Part shown: positions 9,635 through 15,396 of the stretch, one piece after another | Layout of the letters: each line of letters starts with the position of its first letter | How positions within the stretch are numbered: the stretch's first letter is position 1 | NCBI GenBank assembly: GCA_013204585.1 | Contig: JABMNL010000035.1 | Location: 10,803 to 74,802, forward strand | DNA: 64,000 nt | Direction of reading: 5' to 3' | DNA from: SAR202 cluster bacterium | GTDB lineage: Bacteria > Chloroflexota > Dehalococcoidia > Lucifugimonadales > UBA3495 | Notes under the pieces: model-generated | The model's input: only the letters and a program-made list of their open reading frames with translations | Database searches by the model: none | Told to the model about the DNA's origin: nothing | Translations under genes and position numbers: made by a program

Positions 9635-10480
9635 ATGGCACGCACCATCGGATTTCTCGGCCCGGCAGGGACTTATTCGGAAGAAGCTGCCCTGCTTTAC
9701 GACCCCACCGCTGATTGCACTTTCCCAACCATCTCATCGGTGGGGGAAGCCGTGGCTTCGGGCGAAGTCGAAGAAGGCATCGTCCCAATAGAAAACAGCC
9801 TGGCTGGCTCGGTGATTCCCACGTTGGACCTGCTGCTTAGTCAGCCTTCGCTCTACATCCGGGGTGAAATAGATCTTCCAATCGAGCATTACTTGTTGAC
9901 CAAACCCGGGACCAATCCGGCTGATATCAAAGTGATTTACTCGCACCCTCAGGCCTTGTCCCAATGCATCAACTATCTTGAGAAAAACTACCCTCAGGCC
10001 GAGCAAATGGCGTCGCTCAGCACTGTGCTGTGCGTGTCGGATATGTTCGCCAGTTCAGTGCCAGCCGCAGCAATATCGCCACGCCGGGCATCGGAACTAT
10101 ACGATGTAGAAATCTTGGACAAGGGCATACAGGACGTGGCAAGCAACGTGACCCGATTTGCGGTGCTCGGCCTCTCGGATCACACACCCACGGGACGGGA
10201 CAAAACGTCGATGGCCTTTACCTTTGAGAAAGATTCTCCGGGGCTGCTCTACATGGTATTGGGGGAGTTCGCGCGGCGGGACATTAACCTATTCAAGGTT
10301 GAATCACGGCCCACCAAGCAATTGCTTGGCGAGTACATTTTCATGGTCGATTGTGCCGGTCACCGCGAAGAATCACCGATGAAAGAAGCCCTGGCTGCGC
10401 TGTCAGACCCAATCAGTATGCTGCGGGTCTTAGGTTCTTACCCACGCTGGAATCCCAATACTTCGACGCCAAAGGGCTAA
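9635..10480 (+). CDS. pheA: Prephenate dehydratase
   Basis: FLGPAGTYSE, VPIENS, SHPQALSQC, NVTRF, KTS and ESRP motifs, with an ACT domain. Confidence 0.95.
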   Translation: MARTIGFLGPAGTYSEEAALLYDPTADCTFPTISSVGEAVASGEVEEGIVPIENSLAGSVIPTLDLLLSQPSLYIRGEIDLPIEHYLLTKPGTNPADIKVIYSHPQALSQCINYLEKNYPQAEQMASLSTVLCVSDMFASSVPAAAISPRRASELYDVEILDKGIQDVASNVTRFAVLGLSDHTPTGRDKTSMAFTFEKDSPGLLYMVLGEFARRDINLFKVESRPTKQLLGEYIFMVDCAGHREESPMKEALAALSDPISMLRVLGSYPRWNPNTSTPKG

Positions 10481-10502
10481 GAAAAGTTTAAAACCTTGCC
10501 GG

Positions 10503-10812
10503 AAAAAGCGTTAGCCCTCCCCCAGCGGCTTCACTAAGAACACACAAACACCACAACACACACTTCTTAGATCATCTTCCGATTGGAGAAGGGCTAACCG
10601 GGACGGGCCCTATGCTGTCAGACCACCCGGTAAACGCCCTCCATGGCGGCTCTGACATTAAGGACACGGGGCCCATGCACCCGTCTTATTTATTGGCTTC
10701 TACTTTTATCTAAGCAGATGCCTCCTTTGGTTATCGGCGCAAAAACTACGCCTTGTTTAATCATTGATATTTTCTTTGTTTAAACATATGTCTAACAAAG
10801 TATTTAGAATAT
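10503..10812 (-). ncRNA. Candidate structured small RNA (unassigned)
   Basis: Minus-strand consensus promoter upstream, two multi-helix domains whose G-U pairs work only on the minus strand, and a 3' stem followed by a U-run. Confidence 0.4.
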
Positions 10813-10818
10813 TTTTAT

Positions 10819-10847
10819 ATTTTAACCAAAGAAAGTCTTTATGTCAA
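10819..10847 (-). promoter_or_regulatory. Near-consensus sigma70 promoter with no annotated gene downstream
   Basis: Minus strand TTGACA (10847-10842), 17 nt, TAAAAT (10824-10819), in an AT-rich context. Confidence 0.75.
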
Positions 10848-10926
10848 ATTCCGTGCTTTCCCTGCCTAAATACACCCACCAGACCTATTGACAAGCGCTT
10901 AAAGAACTTTCGAAGCGCCACTCTCG

Positions 10927-13900
10927 CTAATTCCGTTCGATGGCATAGATGGTAGTGCCAGCATTTTCGAACACCTTTTGGCCCAATTCATCGAACTTTT
11001 GCAAACCCTCAACGCCATAGGTGATGCGTTCCAAGTCTCCGACCACCACGTAACTCACCCTATATTTGTTCAGTAGGGCCAGGGTTCGCCCGACGTCAGT
11101 GGTCTTATACATTTCTTTAATATCCAGGGCCCGCTCTTGGATGGCCGAAGTATAGGCCTCCCGTTGCTGTGTCTGGTGCCAAGGCCAGCCCAGCACCGTG
11201 GGCAGTCCGGTGTAGCTGGCGAAACGCGCGCCCCAACGGTATTGCTCCAGATGGGCTTCCAATACCACCGGTGAACCCTCCACATTGTCCTGTAGCCACT
11301 CAATTGCCTCCAGGTCCCATTTCAGTTCAATGGGTTGTCCCTGCTCATGGTGAACCGCCGTTGCCATATATGCCGTGCCGTCCTGTGTCGACGGGCCATC
11401 GGTGAACCGGTCTGAAAGCCGGGCCCGGCTGCCCAAAACCGTGTAGACAAGACTGGAGCCAATGAGGACCGCCAGTATGACCAGCCAGGCCCCAGACCGC
11501 CAACCCAGAGTCGGCCTTAAGAATCCCAACGACCCCAGGTGCCAGAGCATGTAGGCCGAAACAATACTGAGCAGCACCCATATCTCCAAGTAATACTTGA
11601 AGAAGCTGTTCATCCGGCCAATGTCACCCTCCACCCGCACCAGATCCACACCGATGCCAAGGATTAGCGCCAATACCAGCAAGACCAAGGGAACAGTTAA
11701 GAAAGATCGCTCGCCATCGTCGGATGACAATATTCGCCAGCCAACTATGCCCGTCATCGTCAAGAAGAAAACCAGCATAACGGCGTTCCAATACCCGGCG
11801 GCCCCAAAGAAGACCGCGCTCAATAGACCGATTGCCACACATAATTTTAGCCACGGCATTCCCGGCACTGAGCTACTATACTCGCGAAGCCTGACGCTCC
11901 AGAACAATTCCCTCAAAGTACCCTTGGCCTGATAGATTAGGGAGGATGCGATGATGAACAAGAATAGTCCGTGAATCCCGAGGAAGCGGTCAACCGGAGT
12001 CCGCCATAGCGAAACATCCAAGCCGGTATTGAATGTTTCGTAGGCTTGATGAAACGGTAGGAACGCCAATAAGCTGAAACCAACCACTCCGAAAGCCAGC
12101 ACCAGAAACATCGCCAACCTTTCCGCTGCCGAGCCTTCGGTGAAATAGGCAGCCAACGCCAGCAGTCCAACCGTCAGAATGACGTAGGACGGAAAATCCC
12201 AGCTATTAACGGCCCATAACGCGCCCAGACCCAGTGCCAAGGCCGCTGCCGACACAATTGTCCACAGCCAACCGCCGTCCCTTAAACCAGCCACCACATT
12301 TAAGCCCAGTCCAATCACCAATAGCGTGAATGGAATGACCATCATGTGAGCGTGCAAATCGGCAAACAAGAAGGTGAAGAACGGAAACTCGGTGATATGG
12401 AATGAGACATCCGCGAAACCCGGTATTCGCTCCGGCACCCAAAAAGCCAGCGGGTTGGGGTCAAAGTTCTCCAGATTGGGTAACATGCGGCTGCTGCGCC
12501 AGAAATCGAAGGCGGGATATGGCACGCCACCAACAAATCGGTGCCAAGAGTTCTGGACTACCTGAACCATCCCGTCCAAGTTACCGATTACAGCAATAAA
12601 TAATCCGCCCGTAAGCCCCGCCGCAACCGGACTCCAGAGCCACTGCCGCCATAAAGGACGGCTATCGCCAAAGGGCAGCGGAGGCAGGGTACCTAAGCCT
12701 GGCAGCGTAATGACGTGGGATGCAGCCCGACGCTGTCGCACCCCTTCGGTCAAGTTGTAGACCAGCGAGTAGGCCCCGGTAACGGTGAGGGCAAAGAACA
12801 TGGGCACGGCCAGATTGAAGGCGGTGGTGGGCAATATCCCAGTGACCCGCACGATGCTGGAAATTACGAAATAGCCCCAGTAGTAATAGTTAAGATAACC
12901 ACCGGCGAACCAGGGGTCGAAAGGCGGCAAAGTGGTGGAGCGGACCACCGCCGTCAGGTAGGCTAACTCCATGGGCTTCTCGCCGCCACGGTACGGGTGC
13001 CACAGGTCCGGGTTGGCGTGACGAAGCAGGACGAATCCCAGGAAAGCGGTCAGGAATAAGACTTCCGCAAAGAGCAACAGCAGCCAATTTTCTTGCAAAA
13101 ATTCAATTATCTCTTCCCGGCGGAAGACTAGGGTAATTGCCGATAACCCGGCAACCACGCCCAGACCGACGTACACCGCGTACCGGGAGTAGTCCATCCA
13201 CCCCAACGACACCGACAGCCAAGCAACGTAGCTGACCGCCAACAGGCCCAGAATTCGTGCCAGGACGATTCCACGGTCGGGCAATGGCCGGAAGATAAAC
13301 ATGGCCAGGGGCAAGGCCGCCAGGTAAATGAGCTCCACCAAAAGCAGCCAGACCAAGACCGGCACGTCATTGGTCCAACTGTCTCGGTCCGCAATATCAG
13401 AGAAGGTGCCGCCTTCTTGTTGGGCAACTAGGTCTTCCCCGGACAGCATCAGCCCTTCTTGTTCCAATCCAGCAGCCAGAGGTGGGCTCCTGAGTTGGTA
13501 CCGAATATCAAGTTCCGTCAGATGGGCCACGTTCTTAAACAACATGACTTGGGGATGGTCGTAGCCAACGACGTTGTCATCGGCGTAACCCAGATTAAGT
13601 CCAATGAGTGAGCCATCTTCCGGGGCTAACGGGTCTGGCCGCTCTAGACCTGCTCGCCCAATCGCATCATCACGGAACGACACACCCAACAGCTCTGGGA
13701 AATTAGTAAAGGTACGGTCGAGTTCGTAGCCCAAATCGCCGGAGAATAGCTCTTGATAATACTGGTTGCTGAAAGGGAAACGCTCGGGGTCGCGGGCGGC
13801 GCTGGTGTAGGGCCGGCTGCTGTAGAAAACTAGGTACTCTGATGTAGCTAACTTCTCGGCCAGCGTTTCCATCTTTTCGAGTGTGTCAGCATCGTAGACC

Positions 13901-15396
13901 GGGTACTGCCAAACGTTGTAGGAGTACAGGTTGGGCACAAACTCGTCCCAGTGGTTGTCGCTAACGATGGCTGTACCTTTGGGTATGTTTTCGTTAATCC
14001 ACGCCGACGCCGTAACCGCCGGATGGTCATTCGAATAGACCTTCTGAAATGCCAACGCATAGAAAGCGGTCGCTCCGACTACAAAAACCACTACCGCCAA
14101 AGAGATTCCGGGCAGAAACCGCGCCGGGTCGCCCTTCTGCCACACCAGATGCGTCGACAACGGACGGTAGGCCTGCACCATCCAAACCAGCATCCGGGCG
14201 GCCATGATAATCATGACCGGAATCAATGGGAAAATGTATCGGAGGAAGTGGACCTCGAAGGTTTCTAGGAAGATGAACCCGGGAACCACCCAAGCCAACA
14301 AAAACAGGTCGGCCCTCCGGTTCCCTTTGCTAATCACAGCAAACATCGCCGTAAACGGGATGGCAAACCAGGCCGCGACCCCCAGCGGAATTCCCAGCCC
14401 CCAGACCGTTGACTGCTGTATCTGATAGAAGAAGGACGGTGTCCCAACATATTGGATGGTGAACGGCCATAGACCGGCGGTCCGAGCCATCCGAGTCTGG
14501 GCCGCCAGGTCGCCCACGAAAGCGCCGATGTCCAACAGGGCGTAGGGAGCAGTAATGAAGAACACTCCGGCTGCAATCGCACCGGCAAGGGCGGCATGGC
14601 CCAATATCCGTTGCACCATTTCCGGCGTGATGTCAGACCAATAGCCTTTGGCATCGTCCAACACCCGGTAGCCATAGACCAAGACCAAGGGGGCCAAGAT
14701 GGGGAGGATGCTCACTTTGGGGGCGAGAGCCAGCCCCAGCATCAACCCCAATAACGCCGAGTCCTGCAGCCGCTTACGTTCCACCATCCGCAACATGGCC
14801 CAGAAACTGGCCAGGGTGAAGAACACAGAAAATGTCTCGGGCCGGAAGAAGTGGCTGTTCTGGATGTTGATTACCGACAAAGCCGTCAGACCGGCCGCCA
14901 ACAGGCCCACTTCTTTGCCGTAAAGCTTCCTGCCCAATACGAACACCATGGCCACCGAACCGACATCGGCCAAAGCAGACAACGGCCGGCCGATGTAGCG
15001 CATGTCCAGGGCGCTGATATCGGTAAAGAGCTCTACTATCCACCGGAAGAACACCATCAAGTAAATGAGGATGCTGCCCAACGGAAACCAATGGGGATTT
15101 AGGGGGCTACGGTCCGCATCGAACAAAGTTACGATGCCCGGAAGTCCAGCTTGGGCGTCCGGCTCCCCGCGGAGATAGCCACAGTCTTGGGCGTTGAGCG
15201 CGTTGGTCAGCAGGTCGTACATGCAACCAGAACGCATGTAGATGTCCCGTTCGTCGGGGTGGAACCCGTAGCCCTGGTCCCAGTTGACGCCGTTCAGCCG
15301 CAGACCAAGGGCCACCACCAAAATGAACAGCAACAAATAGAACGACCAGGACACCCGGCCACCAAAGCTCAGAAAATGTTGCTCCCTAAACGCCAA
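10927..15396 (-). CDS. Large GT-C membrane protein: N-terminal PMT-like glycosyltransferase fused to a DUF2298/Chlor_Arch_YYY domain
   Basis: N-terminal GFHPDER and HFFRPET (PMT_2-like), then GGEKPME...FDPWFAGGYLNYYYWG...ITEFPFFTFLFADLHAH and YTGLPTVLGW. Confidence 0.8.
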   Translation of the reverse strand: MAFREQHFLSFGGRVSWSFYLLLFILVVALGLRLNGVNWDQGYGFHPDERDIYMRSGCMYDLLTNALNAQDCGYLRGEPDAQAGLPGIVTLFDADRSPLNPHWFPLGSILIYLMVFFRWIVELFTDISALDMRYIGRPLSALADVGSVAMVFVLGRKLYGKEVGLLAAGLTALSVINIQNSHFFRPETFSVFFTLASFWAMLRMVERKRLQDSALLGLMLGLALAPKVSILPILAPLVLVYGYRVLDDAKGYWSDITPEMVQRILGHAALAGAIAAGVFFITAPYALLDIGAFVGDLAAQTRMARTAGLWPFTIQYVGTPSFFYQIQQSTVWGLGIPLGVAAWFAIPFTAMFAVISKGNRRADLFLLAWVVPGFIFLETFEVHFLRYIFPLIPVMIIMAARMLVWMVQAYRPLSTHLVWQKGDPARFLPGISLAVVVFVVGATAFYALAFQKVYSNDHPAVTASAWINENIPKGTAIVSDNHWDEFVPNLYSYNVWQYPVYDADTLEKMETLAEKLATSEYLVFYSSRPYTSAARDPERFPFSNQYYQELFSGDLGYELDRTFTNFPELLGVSFRDDAIGRAGLERPDPLAPEDGSLIGLNLGYADDNVVGYDHPQVMLFKNVAHLTELDIRYQLRSPPLAAGLEQEGLMLSGEDLVAQQEGGTFSDIADRDSWTNDVPVLVWLLLVELIYLAALPLAMFIFRPLPDRGIVLARILGLLAVSYVAWLSVSLGWMDYSRYAVYVGLGVVAGLSAITLVFRREEIIEFLQENWLLLLFAEVLFLTAFLGFVLLRHANPDLWHPYRGGEKPMELAYLTAVVRSTTLPPFDPWFAGGYLNYYYWGYFVISSIVRVTGILPTTAFNLAVPMFFALTVTGAYSLVYNLTEGVRQRRAASHVITLPGLGTLPPLPFGDSRPLWRQWLWSPVAAGLTGGLFIAVIGNLDGMVQVVQNSWHRFVGGVPYPAFDFWRSSRMLPNLENFDPNPLAFWVPERIPGFADVSFHITEFPFFTFLFADLHAHMMVIPFTLLVIGLGLNVVAGLRDGGWLWTIVSAAALALGLGALWAVNSWDFPSYVILTVGLLALAAYFTEGSAAERLAMFLVLAFGVVGFSLLAFLPFHQAYETFNTGLDVSLWRTPVDRFLGIHGLFLFIIASSLIYQAKGTLRELFWSVRLREYSSSVPGMPWLKLCVAIGLLSAVFFGAAGYWNAVMLVFFLTMTGIVGWRILSSDDGERSFLTVPLVLLVLALILGIGVDLVRVEGDIGRMNSFFKYYLEIWVLLSIVSAYMLWHLGSLGFLRPTLGWRSGAWLVILAVLIGSSLVYTVLGSRARLSDRFTDGPSTQDGTAYMATAVHHEQGQPIELKWDLEAIEWLQDNVEGSPVVLEAHLEQYRWGARFASYTGLPTVLGWPWHQTQQREAYTSAIQERALDIKEMYKTTDVGRTLALLNKYRVSYVVVGDLERITYGVEGLQKFDELGQKVFENAGTTIYAIERN

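Follow-up and report, generated by a model that had tools for sequence, protein, structure and literature searches.

A minus-strand gene located between pheA and a membrane protein gene of this SAR202 genome very probably encodes a genuine, functional non-coding RNA. It belongs to a well-supported, previously undescribed and lineage-specific sRNA family of one SAR202 (Dehalococcoidia) family. In kind the sRNA family is ordinary, consisting of a promoter, hairpins and an intrinsic terminator. With its promoter, a structure backed by covariation and a clear phylogenetic range, the locus represents a well-defined candidate sRNA in SAR202, a group that is abundant in the dark ocean and uncultured; a full-text literature search revealed no paper describing a regulatory sRNA in these bacteria. 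As to its function, the reading that we prefer, with a probability of about 0.4, is a base-pairing riboregulator that would act through a G/U loop independently of Hfq. It is followed, roughly in this order, by a cis role linked to pheA, by protein binding and by an inert remnant.

The first-pass annotation of the window (the whole stretch of 64,000 nt that was analysed) had proposed an undescribed, independently promoted and structured minus-strand RNA at this place. The proposal was borne out: the RNA has no match in Rfam, shows conservation extending from the -35 box as far as the terminator, and contains helices that covary. The minus-strand promoter, the helices, the G/U loop and the U5 run were all present where they had been placed. 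The host is an uncultured SAR202-cluster bacterium (Dehalococcoidia) represented by a 3.1-Mb MAG with a completeness of 92%, and all genomes compared with it are MAGs as well.

Upstream of the RNA gene and on the same strand lies the gene of a GT-C-type membrane protein of 1489 aa (DUF2298/PMT_2; 10927..15396, minus strand), whose end is separated from the -35 box by 80 nt. On the other side the RNA converges with pheA (9635..10480, plus strand), encoding prephenate dehydratase with an ACT domain (PF00800, 3e-54; PF01842). The sigma-70-type promoter TTGACA-17-TAAAAT (10847-10819, minus strand; -35 box at 10847-10842, -10 box TAAAAT at 10824-10819) is identical to the consensus at 11 of 12 positions. 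Only three TTGACA-N17-TAWAAT sites were found across the 3.1-Mb genome, the promoter of the RNA gene being one of them. The other two are located on contigs C46 (minus strand, 36821) and C66 (minus strand, 12655) and may belong to further genes or RNAs with high expression. With the start of transcription placed near 10812 from the position of the -10 box, the predicted transcript should run on the minus strand from ~10812 to 10503 (~310 nt); its ends, like its abundance, are predicted values.

The promoter 9-mer TTGACATAA is kept family-wide, in every genus-level homologue. Together with the downstream part (TTGGTTAnnAT) it is intact in each of the 23 metagenome contigs whose sequence reaches back to it, and the 9-mer TT[GA]ACATAA precedes hairpin H3 (described below) in all 45 loci compared, at a distance of 66-693 nt. 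It should be mentioned that a genome-wide role of TTGACATAA as a promoter motif was also considered and rejected, as the 9-mer is not over-represented (24 occurrences versus 24 expected).

The 318-nt transcript folds with an energy of -111.9 kcal/mol, compared with -89.2 +/- 5.1 for dinucleotide shuffles (z = -4.5); none of 100 shuffles was as stable. It is modelled as a leader helix (P1/P1a) and a hairpin P2, followed by two adjacent long hairpins, H2 and H3. The A/U-rich 5' leader (10765..10812, minus strand, as are all elements of the RNA), seen in per-sequence folds starting from ~10812, contains helix P1, in which AUAUUCU (10812-10806) pairs with AGAAAAUAU (10775-10767) and encloses hairpin P1a (10800-10774), variable in sequence and retained as a hairpin. 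The leader was misaligned by MAFFT, and the evidence for P1 comes from single-sequence folds. In these the conserved 5' AUAUUCU pairs with AGAAUAU around the variable hairpin, and compensatory variants were found (AUAUUCUC/GAGAAUAU, ACAUUCU/AGAAUGU and UCUUCU/AGAAGA). An optional hairpin P1b (GGCGU...GCGCC; 10736..10752) is missing from several species of the genus.

Hairpin P2 (GGAGGCAUCUGCUUAG...AGUAGAAGCC; 10695..10725) is preceded on its 5' side by a Shine-Dalgarno-like AAGGAGG. The long hairpin H2 (10599..10683) carries a conserved apical loop, GGAGGGCGUUUA, and joins H3 without a linker; its helix UGUCAGAGCCGCC (10657-10645) with GGGUGGUCUGACA (10628-10616) is closed by AUGGGCCC/GGGCCCGU. 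RNAalifold predicted P2, H2 and H3 from 13 species, with eight compensatory pairs. We also wrote the P2/H2/H3 structure by hand and scored it on 25 distinct sequences, comprising the 13 species of the genus and metagenome contigs. In total 96% of cells were paired and 11 pairs had both sides changed, compared with 34-47% of cells paired in slid controls. The score was 87% for P2 (helix 1), misplacement of gaps by MAFFT notwithstanding, and 95-98% for H2 (helices 2-4), where both sides had changed in six pairs.

Several local variants of the H2 region were also seen. The metagenome contig Ga0315339_1004692 (L036) contains four tandem copies of CACGGGC(C) within the 5' strand of H2, which may stem from slippage or be an assembly artefact. 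One genome (G010; L011/L082) has lost the 3' strand of the lower H2 stem through a 9-nt deletion; an alternative local hairpin, GGUCCUUGUGACA-GAAG-UGUCAGGACC, is possible there.

Hairpin H3 (89 nt; 10510..10598) is the core conserved family-wide. It consists of a G+C-rich basal stem of ~15 bp (10598-10585 with 10523-10510), a middle stem CGG/CCG, an inner stem CUAAGAA (10570-10564)/UUCUUAG (10540-10534) and a 23-nt apical loop, GUGUGUGUUGUGGUGUUUGUGUG (10541..10563), made exclusively of G and U. The basal stem is followed by GC-UUUUU, the U5 run (10503..10507) completing an intrinsic terminator, and U-rich tails are present in all 45 homologues. A simple terminator scanner missed H3 only because the enclosed "loop" is longer than 8 nt. 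Over 45 sequences from 14 genera, 92.5% of cells in H3 are paired and both sides have changed in 16 of 21 pairs, values that none of 500 shuffles equalled; this alignment was fitted to the model and leans toward the structure. GU/UG cells number 97 versus 10 for AC/CA. This excess of G-U pairs, together with the promoter and the U run, both of which exist only on the minus strand, places the RNA on that strand.

The H3 loop is 22-30 nt long in the 45 genomes; G makes up 49% of it and U 32% (together 81%), A 13% and C 6%. The hexamer GUGUGG is found in the loop in 12 of the 14 genera. When each genus is represented by a single sequence, the count is 9 of 14, the best hexamer of shuffled loops reaching 4.6 on average, and one shuffle in 1000 gave a match as good. 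Apart from GUGUGG the loop sequence differs from genus to genus. Within the genus the 3' half of the loop, GGUGUUUGGG, is conserved at 90% or more, in contrast to the leader hairpins, which vary freely. Across genera, the two strands of the inner stem (GCUAAG/CUUAGC) and the loop motif are kept in the sequence itself, beyond pairing. The signal exceeds mere composition, and we consider the loop to be under selection, judging from these alignments.

The distribution of the RNA is narrow. By BLASTN the intergenic region was recovered from 14 of the genus's 19 genomes, with identity levels of 72-83%, and from no other genus. In the genomes of the genus the alignable block extends from the -35 box through the terminator, and the flanks beyond are unalignable. 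A pattern built on the H2/H3 junction and applied to 185,579 GTDB genomes gave the same 13 species, and 27 genuine marine metagenome contigs contained it as well; a further metagenome match (L046) was a chance match within a coding region and was dropped.

Two covariance models were built, R1 for the 3' part of the RNA and R2 for H3 alone. The RNAalifold structure underlying R1 includes a spurious outer helix and lacks P2; it served for searching only and not as evidence. R1 picked up divergent copies in further genera of the family, with mainly H3 in common, and the long model gave one match order-wide under strict filters. With R2, 62 of the 201 genomes of the family, belonging to 14 of 27 genera, each gave exactly one copy. 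Among 400 other genomes of the class only chance-level matches were obtained (E about 0.007, E-values of such short-calibrated models being rough). Diverged H3 copies with G/U-rich loops could be recognised by eye in two of the genomes missed by R2 (G135 and G022). Both models are usable for mining metatranscriptomes.

P2 and H2 are not conserved beyond a few genera; in the genus of this genome both P2 and the long H2 are conserved in addition to the family-wide parts. Related genomes revealed no conserved ORF or start codon in the transcript, and the small ORFs of the leader are not conserved. From sequence comparison, the parts conserved and selected family-wide are the promoter, the leader and H3. 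The data firmly indicate that these three are under purifying selection as a minus-strand RNA, both in lineages with ORFs between promoter and H3 and in lineages without them.

At first reading the RNA could not be matched to tmRNA, RNase P, SRP or 6S, and the searches for known RNAs agree. Rfam 15 gave no match at the gathering score in the window and none at E<=10 in the region 10400-11000. ARAGORN was negative, so that tRNA and tmRNA can be set aside, and SRP RNA (RF00169) is encoded on a different contig of this genome (C76:8207-8306, 72 bits). As for 6S RNA (RF00013), which is likewise single-copy, strongly promoted and a few hundred nucleotides long, the window contains no match. The SAR202 RNA lacks a closing 5'-3' stem and a two-stranded central bubble, its consensus fold being a row of hairpins and not a 6S-like rod. 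6S RNA is near-universal, whereas the SAR202 RNA is restricted to one family. No match to the 6S model was found in 13 genomes of the genus. With just 5 of 14 control genomes detected by the same model, this negative carries little weight, and the clade's own 6S RNA has simply escaped it.

To account for these features we propose the following scheme. The near-consensus promoter would drive the ~310-nt minus-strand RNA; H3 and the U run would terminate it and display a C-depleted, G/U-rich loop with GUGUGG. The exposed loop would then pair with C/A-rich (CCACAC-like) sites in other RNAs, Hfq not being required. One partner would be guaranteed by geometry, namely the 3' UTR of the convergent pheA mRNA, which should read into H3 in antisense. 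The module would serve either as a stand-alone sRNA or as the 3' UTR of an mRNA. That the loop works by base pairing is in itself a tentative proposition, to be held with less than even confidence.

The closest precedent is the enterobacterial sRNA GcvB, whose G/U-rich seed binds C/A-rich elements of mRNAs, together with DapZ, an sRNA derived from the dapB 3' UTR that has a GcvB-like seed. Like GcvB (RF00022), the SAR202 RNA exposes a G/U-rich stretch free of C that could pair with C/A-rich RNA, and its 3' end is an intrinsic terminator; in common with DapZ, it has a promoter of its own and a relationship to the 3' end of an mRNA. However, the GcvB covariance model does not match it, it comes from a different phylum, and its G/U stretch is located in the apical loop of a terminator hairpin, while GcvB and DapZ use a linear single-stranded G/U region. 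A search with E. coli and B. subtilis Hfq (tblastn, E<=1) revealed no hfq gene in the 92%-complete MAG, where absence is not proof. If the G/U loop is a seed, the RNA would represent the GcvB/DapZ strategy in a form independent of Hfq and in a distant phylum.

The trans-acting role of GcvB type put forward in the first-pass annotation thus found no backing, given that the hfq gene was not found and that loop pairing, unlike that of GcvB, is not enriched at translation start regions. These target negatives, for which RNAduplex, exact complements of 8-14 nt and the positional profile of CCACAC were used, are weak, since gene starts came from a crude script: RNAduplex energies of the loop were no better at start regions (mean -18.2) than inside genes (-19.0); 8-mer complements of the loop were only 1.5-fold enriched at start regions, in genes that form no coherent set; those of the best matches in the translation initiation regions that were translated belong to genes of functionally unrelated proteins; and CCACAC showed no positional preference for start codons. 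Complements of the P2, H2-loop, linker and leader motifs occur in the genome at chance level. Several further points count against the riboregulator. With no hfq gene found, it would work without a known chaperone; a seed inside the loop of a terminator hairpin is unusual; the loop sequence outside GUGUGG is variable among genera; and the adjacency to pheA may be mere synteny.

It should be mentioned that the longest complements of the loop beyond the locus (CACCACAAC..., 11-13 nt) are located on contig C1 at about 8295 and 10536. From the flanking translation, read by eye, we take them to lie in the codons for the E-H-H-N motif of a putative luciferase-like monooxygenase. This family is greatly expanded in SAR202, and the match to monooxygenase codons is probably a coincidence.

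The earlier suggestion that the RNA is possibly antisense to the 3' end of pheA agrees with the geometry in one part only. The coding sequence is not overlapped, the U run ending 22 nt short of the pheA stop codon; the 3' UTR of the pheA mRNA, on the other hand, must enter antisense to the RNA. pheA is convergent with H3 in 45 of 45 loci from 14 genera. DUF2298 is located upstream in 33 of the 45, that is, in all those whose fetched sequence extends so far, and in both locus contexts. The distance from the 3' end of H3 to pheA ranges from a 1-nt overlap (two loci) to 88 nt (one locus); all but one of the 45 loci have it at 41 nt or less, and 41 of them at 8-41 nt. This short gap leaves in most loci no room for a terminator of pheA itself, so the pheA mRNA should be complementary to the sRNA. 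A comparable arrangement is known from E. coli, where the cis-antisense sRNA GadY overlaps the 3' UTR of gadX. In both cases the sRNA gene is convergent with and abuts a protein gene whose mRNA 3' UTR is fully complementary to the sRNA, the overlap being deduced in SAR202 from the short gap (<=41 nt in 44 of 45 loci). Unlike GadY, the SAR202 sRNA has extra conserved domains, and family members lacking H3 keep the gene order.

Such data could also be read as a cis element linked to pheA, which we consider rather unlikely, although it ranks next after the riboregulator. H3 would be a strand-asymmetric end-of-gene module that is shared by the two genes and tunes pheA. On the minus strand it would act as an intrinsic terminator, and on the plus strand as a weakened hairpin with a G-poor, C/A-rich loop just after the pheA stop codon. 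The plus-strand complement could be a Rho loading (rut) site or a stabiliser of the pheA 3' end, while convergent transcription or pairing of the sRNA with the pheA 3' UTR, in the manner of GadY and gadX, would tune pheA. The invariable convergence with pheA and the lack of room for its own terminator in most loci agree with this reading. So does the composition of the plus strand, which over the 100 nt that follow the pheA stop codon is C-rich and G-poor (C/G 2.1-2.7 in 78-nt windows), and the genome contains a full-length Rho gene (52% identity to E. coli Rho). The G-U pairs of H3 become C-A mismatches on the pheA strand, which would keep the element folded on the minus strand while opening it on the plus strand. 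Finally, short units exist that contain little beyond the promoter and H3 (66-172 nt from motif to H3).

Against a cis element stands the gene order of family members without H3, which converge on pheA in the same way and have ordinary terminators. At two such loci (L128 and L132, genomes G220 and G430) a YtxH operon closes with plain short terminators while still facing pheA. The gene order is thus older than the H3 element, and the adjacency can be inherited synteny. Besides, a rut site or terminator needs no conserved strong promoter, leader, P2 and H2, and composition alone would suffice for it without the conserved GUGUGG; a loop of 23-30 nt is also short for a rut site. In a more specific variant, H3 would be a regulated terminator: a factor bound to the GUGUGG or G/U loop, the candidates being a protein and an uncharged tRNA with its CACCA-3' end, would set the read-through into pheA antisense, giving a convergent "antisense attenuator" of aromatic amino-acid synthesis, with the G-poor plus strand as a Rho loading site. 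We regard this variant as very improbable.

A third possibility, less likely again than the cis element, is that the RNA works by binding a protein, which would recognise the GUGUGG loop and possibly also the motifs resembling GGAGG in P2 and H2. The abundant RNA would titrate or deliver this protein, and the 3' UTR hairpin of the small-protein mRNAs would recruit the same factor. The conservation of the inner stem strands and the loop motif in sequence across genera is what would be expected of a protein-binding site, a strong promoter fits a stoichiometric binder, and the missing target signal for base pairing points in the same direction. In some relatives, moreover, the 5' half of P2 is present three times over, which can be counted in favour of protein binding; however, this half-site is the only element to recur, and repeated motifs of the CsrB/RsmZ kind are otherwise absent. 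P2 and H2 are also not conserved beyond a few genera, and there is no candidate protein; neither the csrA nor the hfq gene was found. The protein sponge raised in the first-pass annotation, taken as one of CsrA type, found no backing, tblastn revealing no csrA gene in this genome. The SAR202 RNA resembles CsrB/RsmZ in having multiple hairpins, a strong promoter (expression being predicted here) and GGA motifs in P2 and the H2 loop. It differs in having only two or three GGA sites, a conserved motif that is GUGUGG and not A(N)GGA, and no csrA partner gene found in its genome.

The triplication itself was seen on three metagenome contigs (L034, L041 and L055), where three tandem copies of GAGGCNYCUGCUUAAAC, corresponding to the 5' half of P2, are located upstream of P2. 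It suggests that the P2 5' half serves for recognition or offers an alternative partner for pairing.

Comparison of the 45 loci revealed that the distance between the promoter and H3 varies with what lies between them. Where the motif and H3 are 66-172 nt apart, there is almost nothing in between; at about 200-290 nt there are non-coding hairpins, as in this genome; at about 440 nt a single ORF of a small TM protein is present, and at about 600-690 nt a TM-protein ORF is accompanied by a YtxH-like ORF (PF12732). ORF-less forms were found in several genera. In ORF-bearing genera the leader following the promoter (AUAAAAAUACUUCU... and a hairpin) resembles the leader of this genome. The promoter, leader and H3 being common to both kinds of loci, the RNA is akin to an mRNA 3' UTR. 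Comparison of the loci thus shows the transcription unit as an mRNA whose 3' UTR is structured in one set of genera and as a non-coding RNA in another. One unit found in two states across sister genera provides a useful natural series for the origin of sRNAs from mRNAs.

This kinship suggests one more reading, the least probable of the main four: the RNA might be the leftover untranslated shell of a former mRNA of two small membrane proteins (promoter, 5' UTR and a stabilising 3' hairpin/terminator), whose ORFs were deleted in the genus and which has no function of its own; the same promoter motif, leader and H3 do flank TM and YtxH ORFs in sister genera (g152, g154, g161 and g162), and this genome has no homologue of these ORFs, but a shell should decay, while here 72-83% identity and compensatory changes are found over 13 species and 27 metagenome contigs, ORF-less forms exist in several genera, and the genus-specific helices P2 and long H2 have been added and conserved. 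The conserved promoter, leader and H3 together with the added helices make a functionless remnant unlikely. Neither copies nor remnants of the TM and YtxH genes were found in this genome, nor any coding remnant in the RNA region, and the RNA is not a decayed gene, though it is kin to an mRNA 3' UTR.

The small-gene pair itself, which is conserved in sister genera, consists of a TM protein of ~85 aa, which has an LYRSxRR motif and belongs to no Pfam family, and a YtxH-like protein. It was found at loci L091-L093, L095, L099, L101, L102, L104, L105, L107-L109, L113, L115, L116, L121 and L122.
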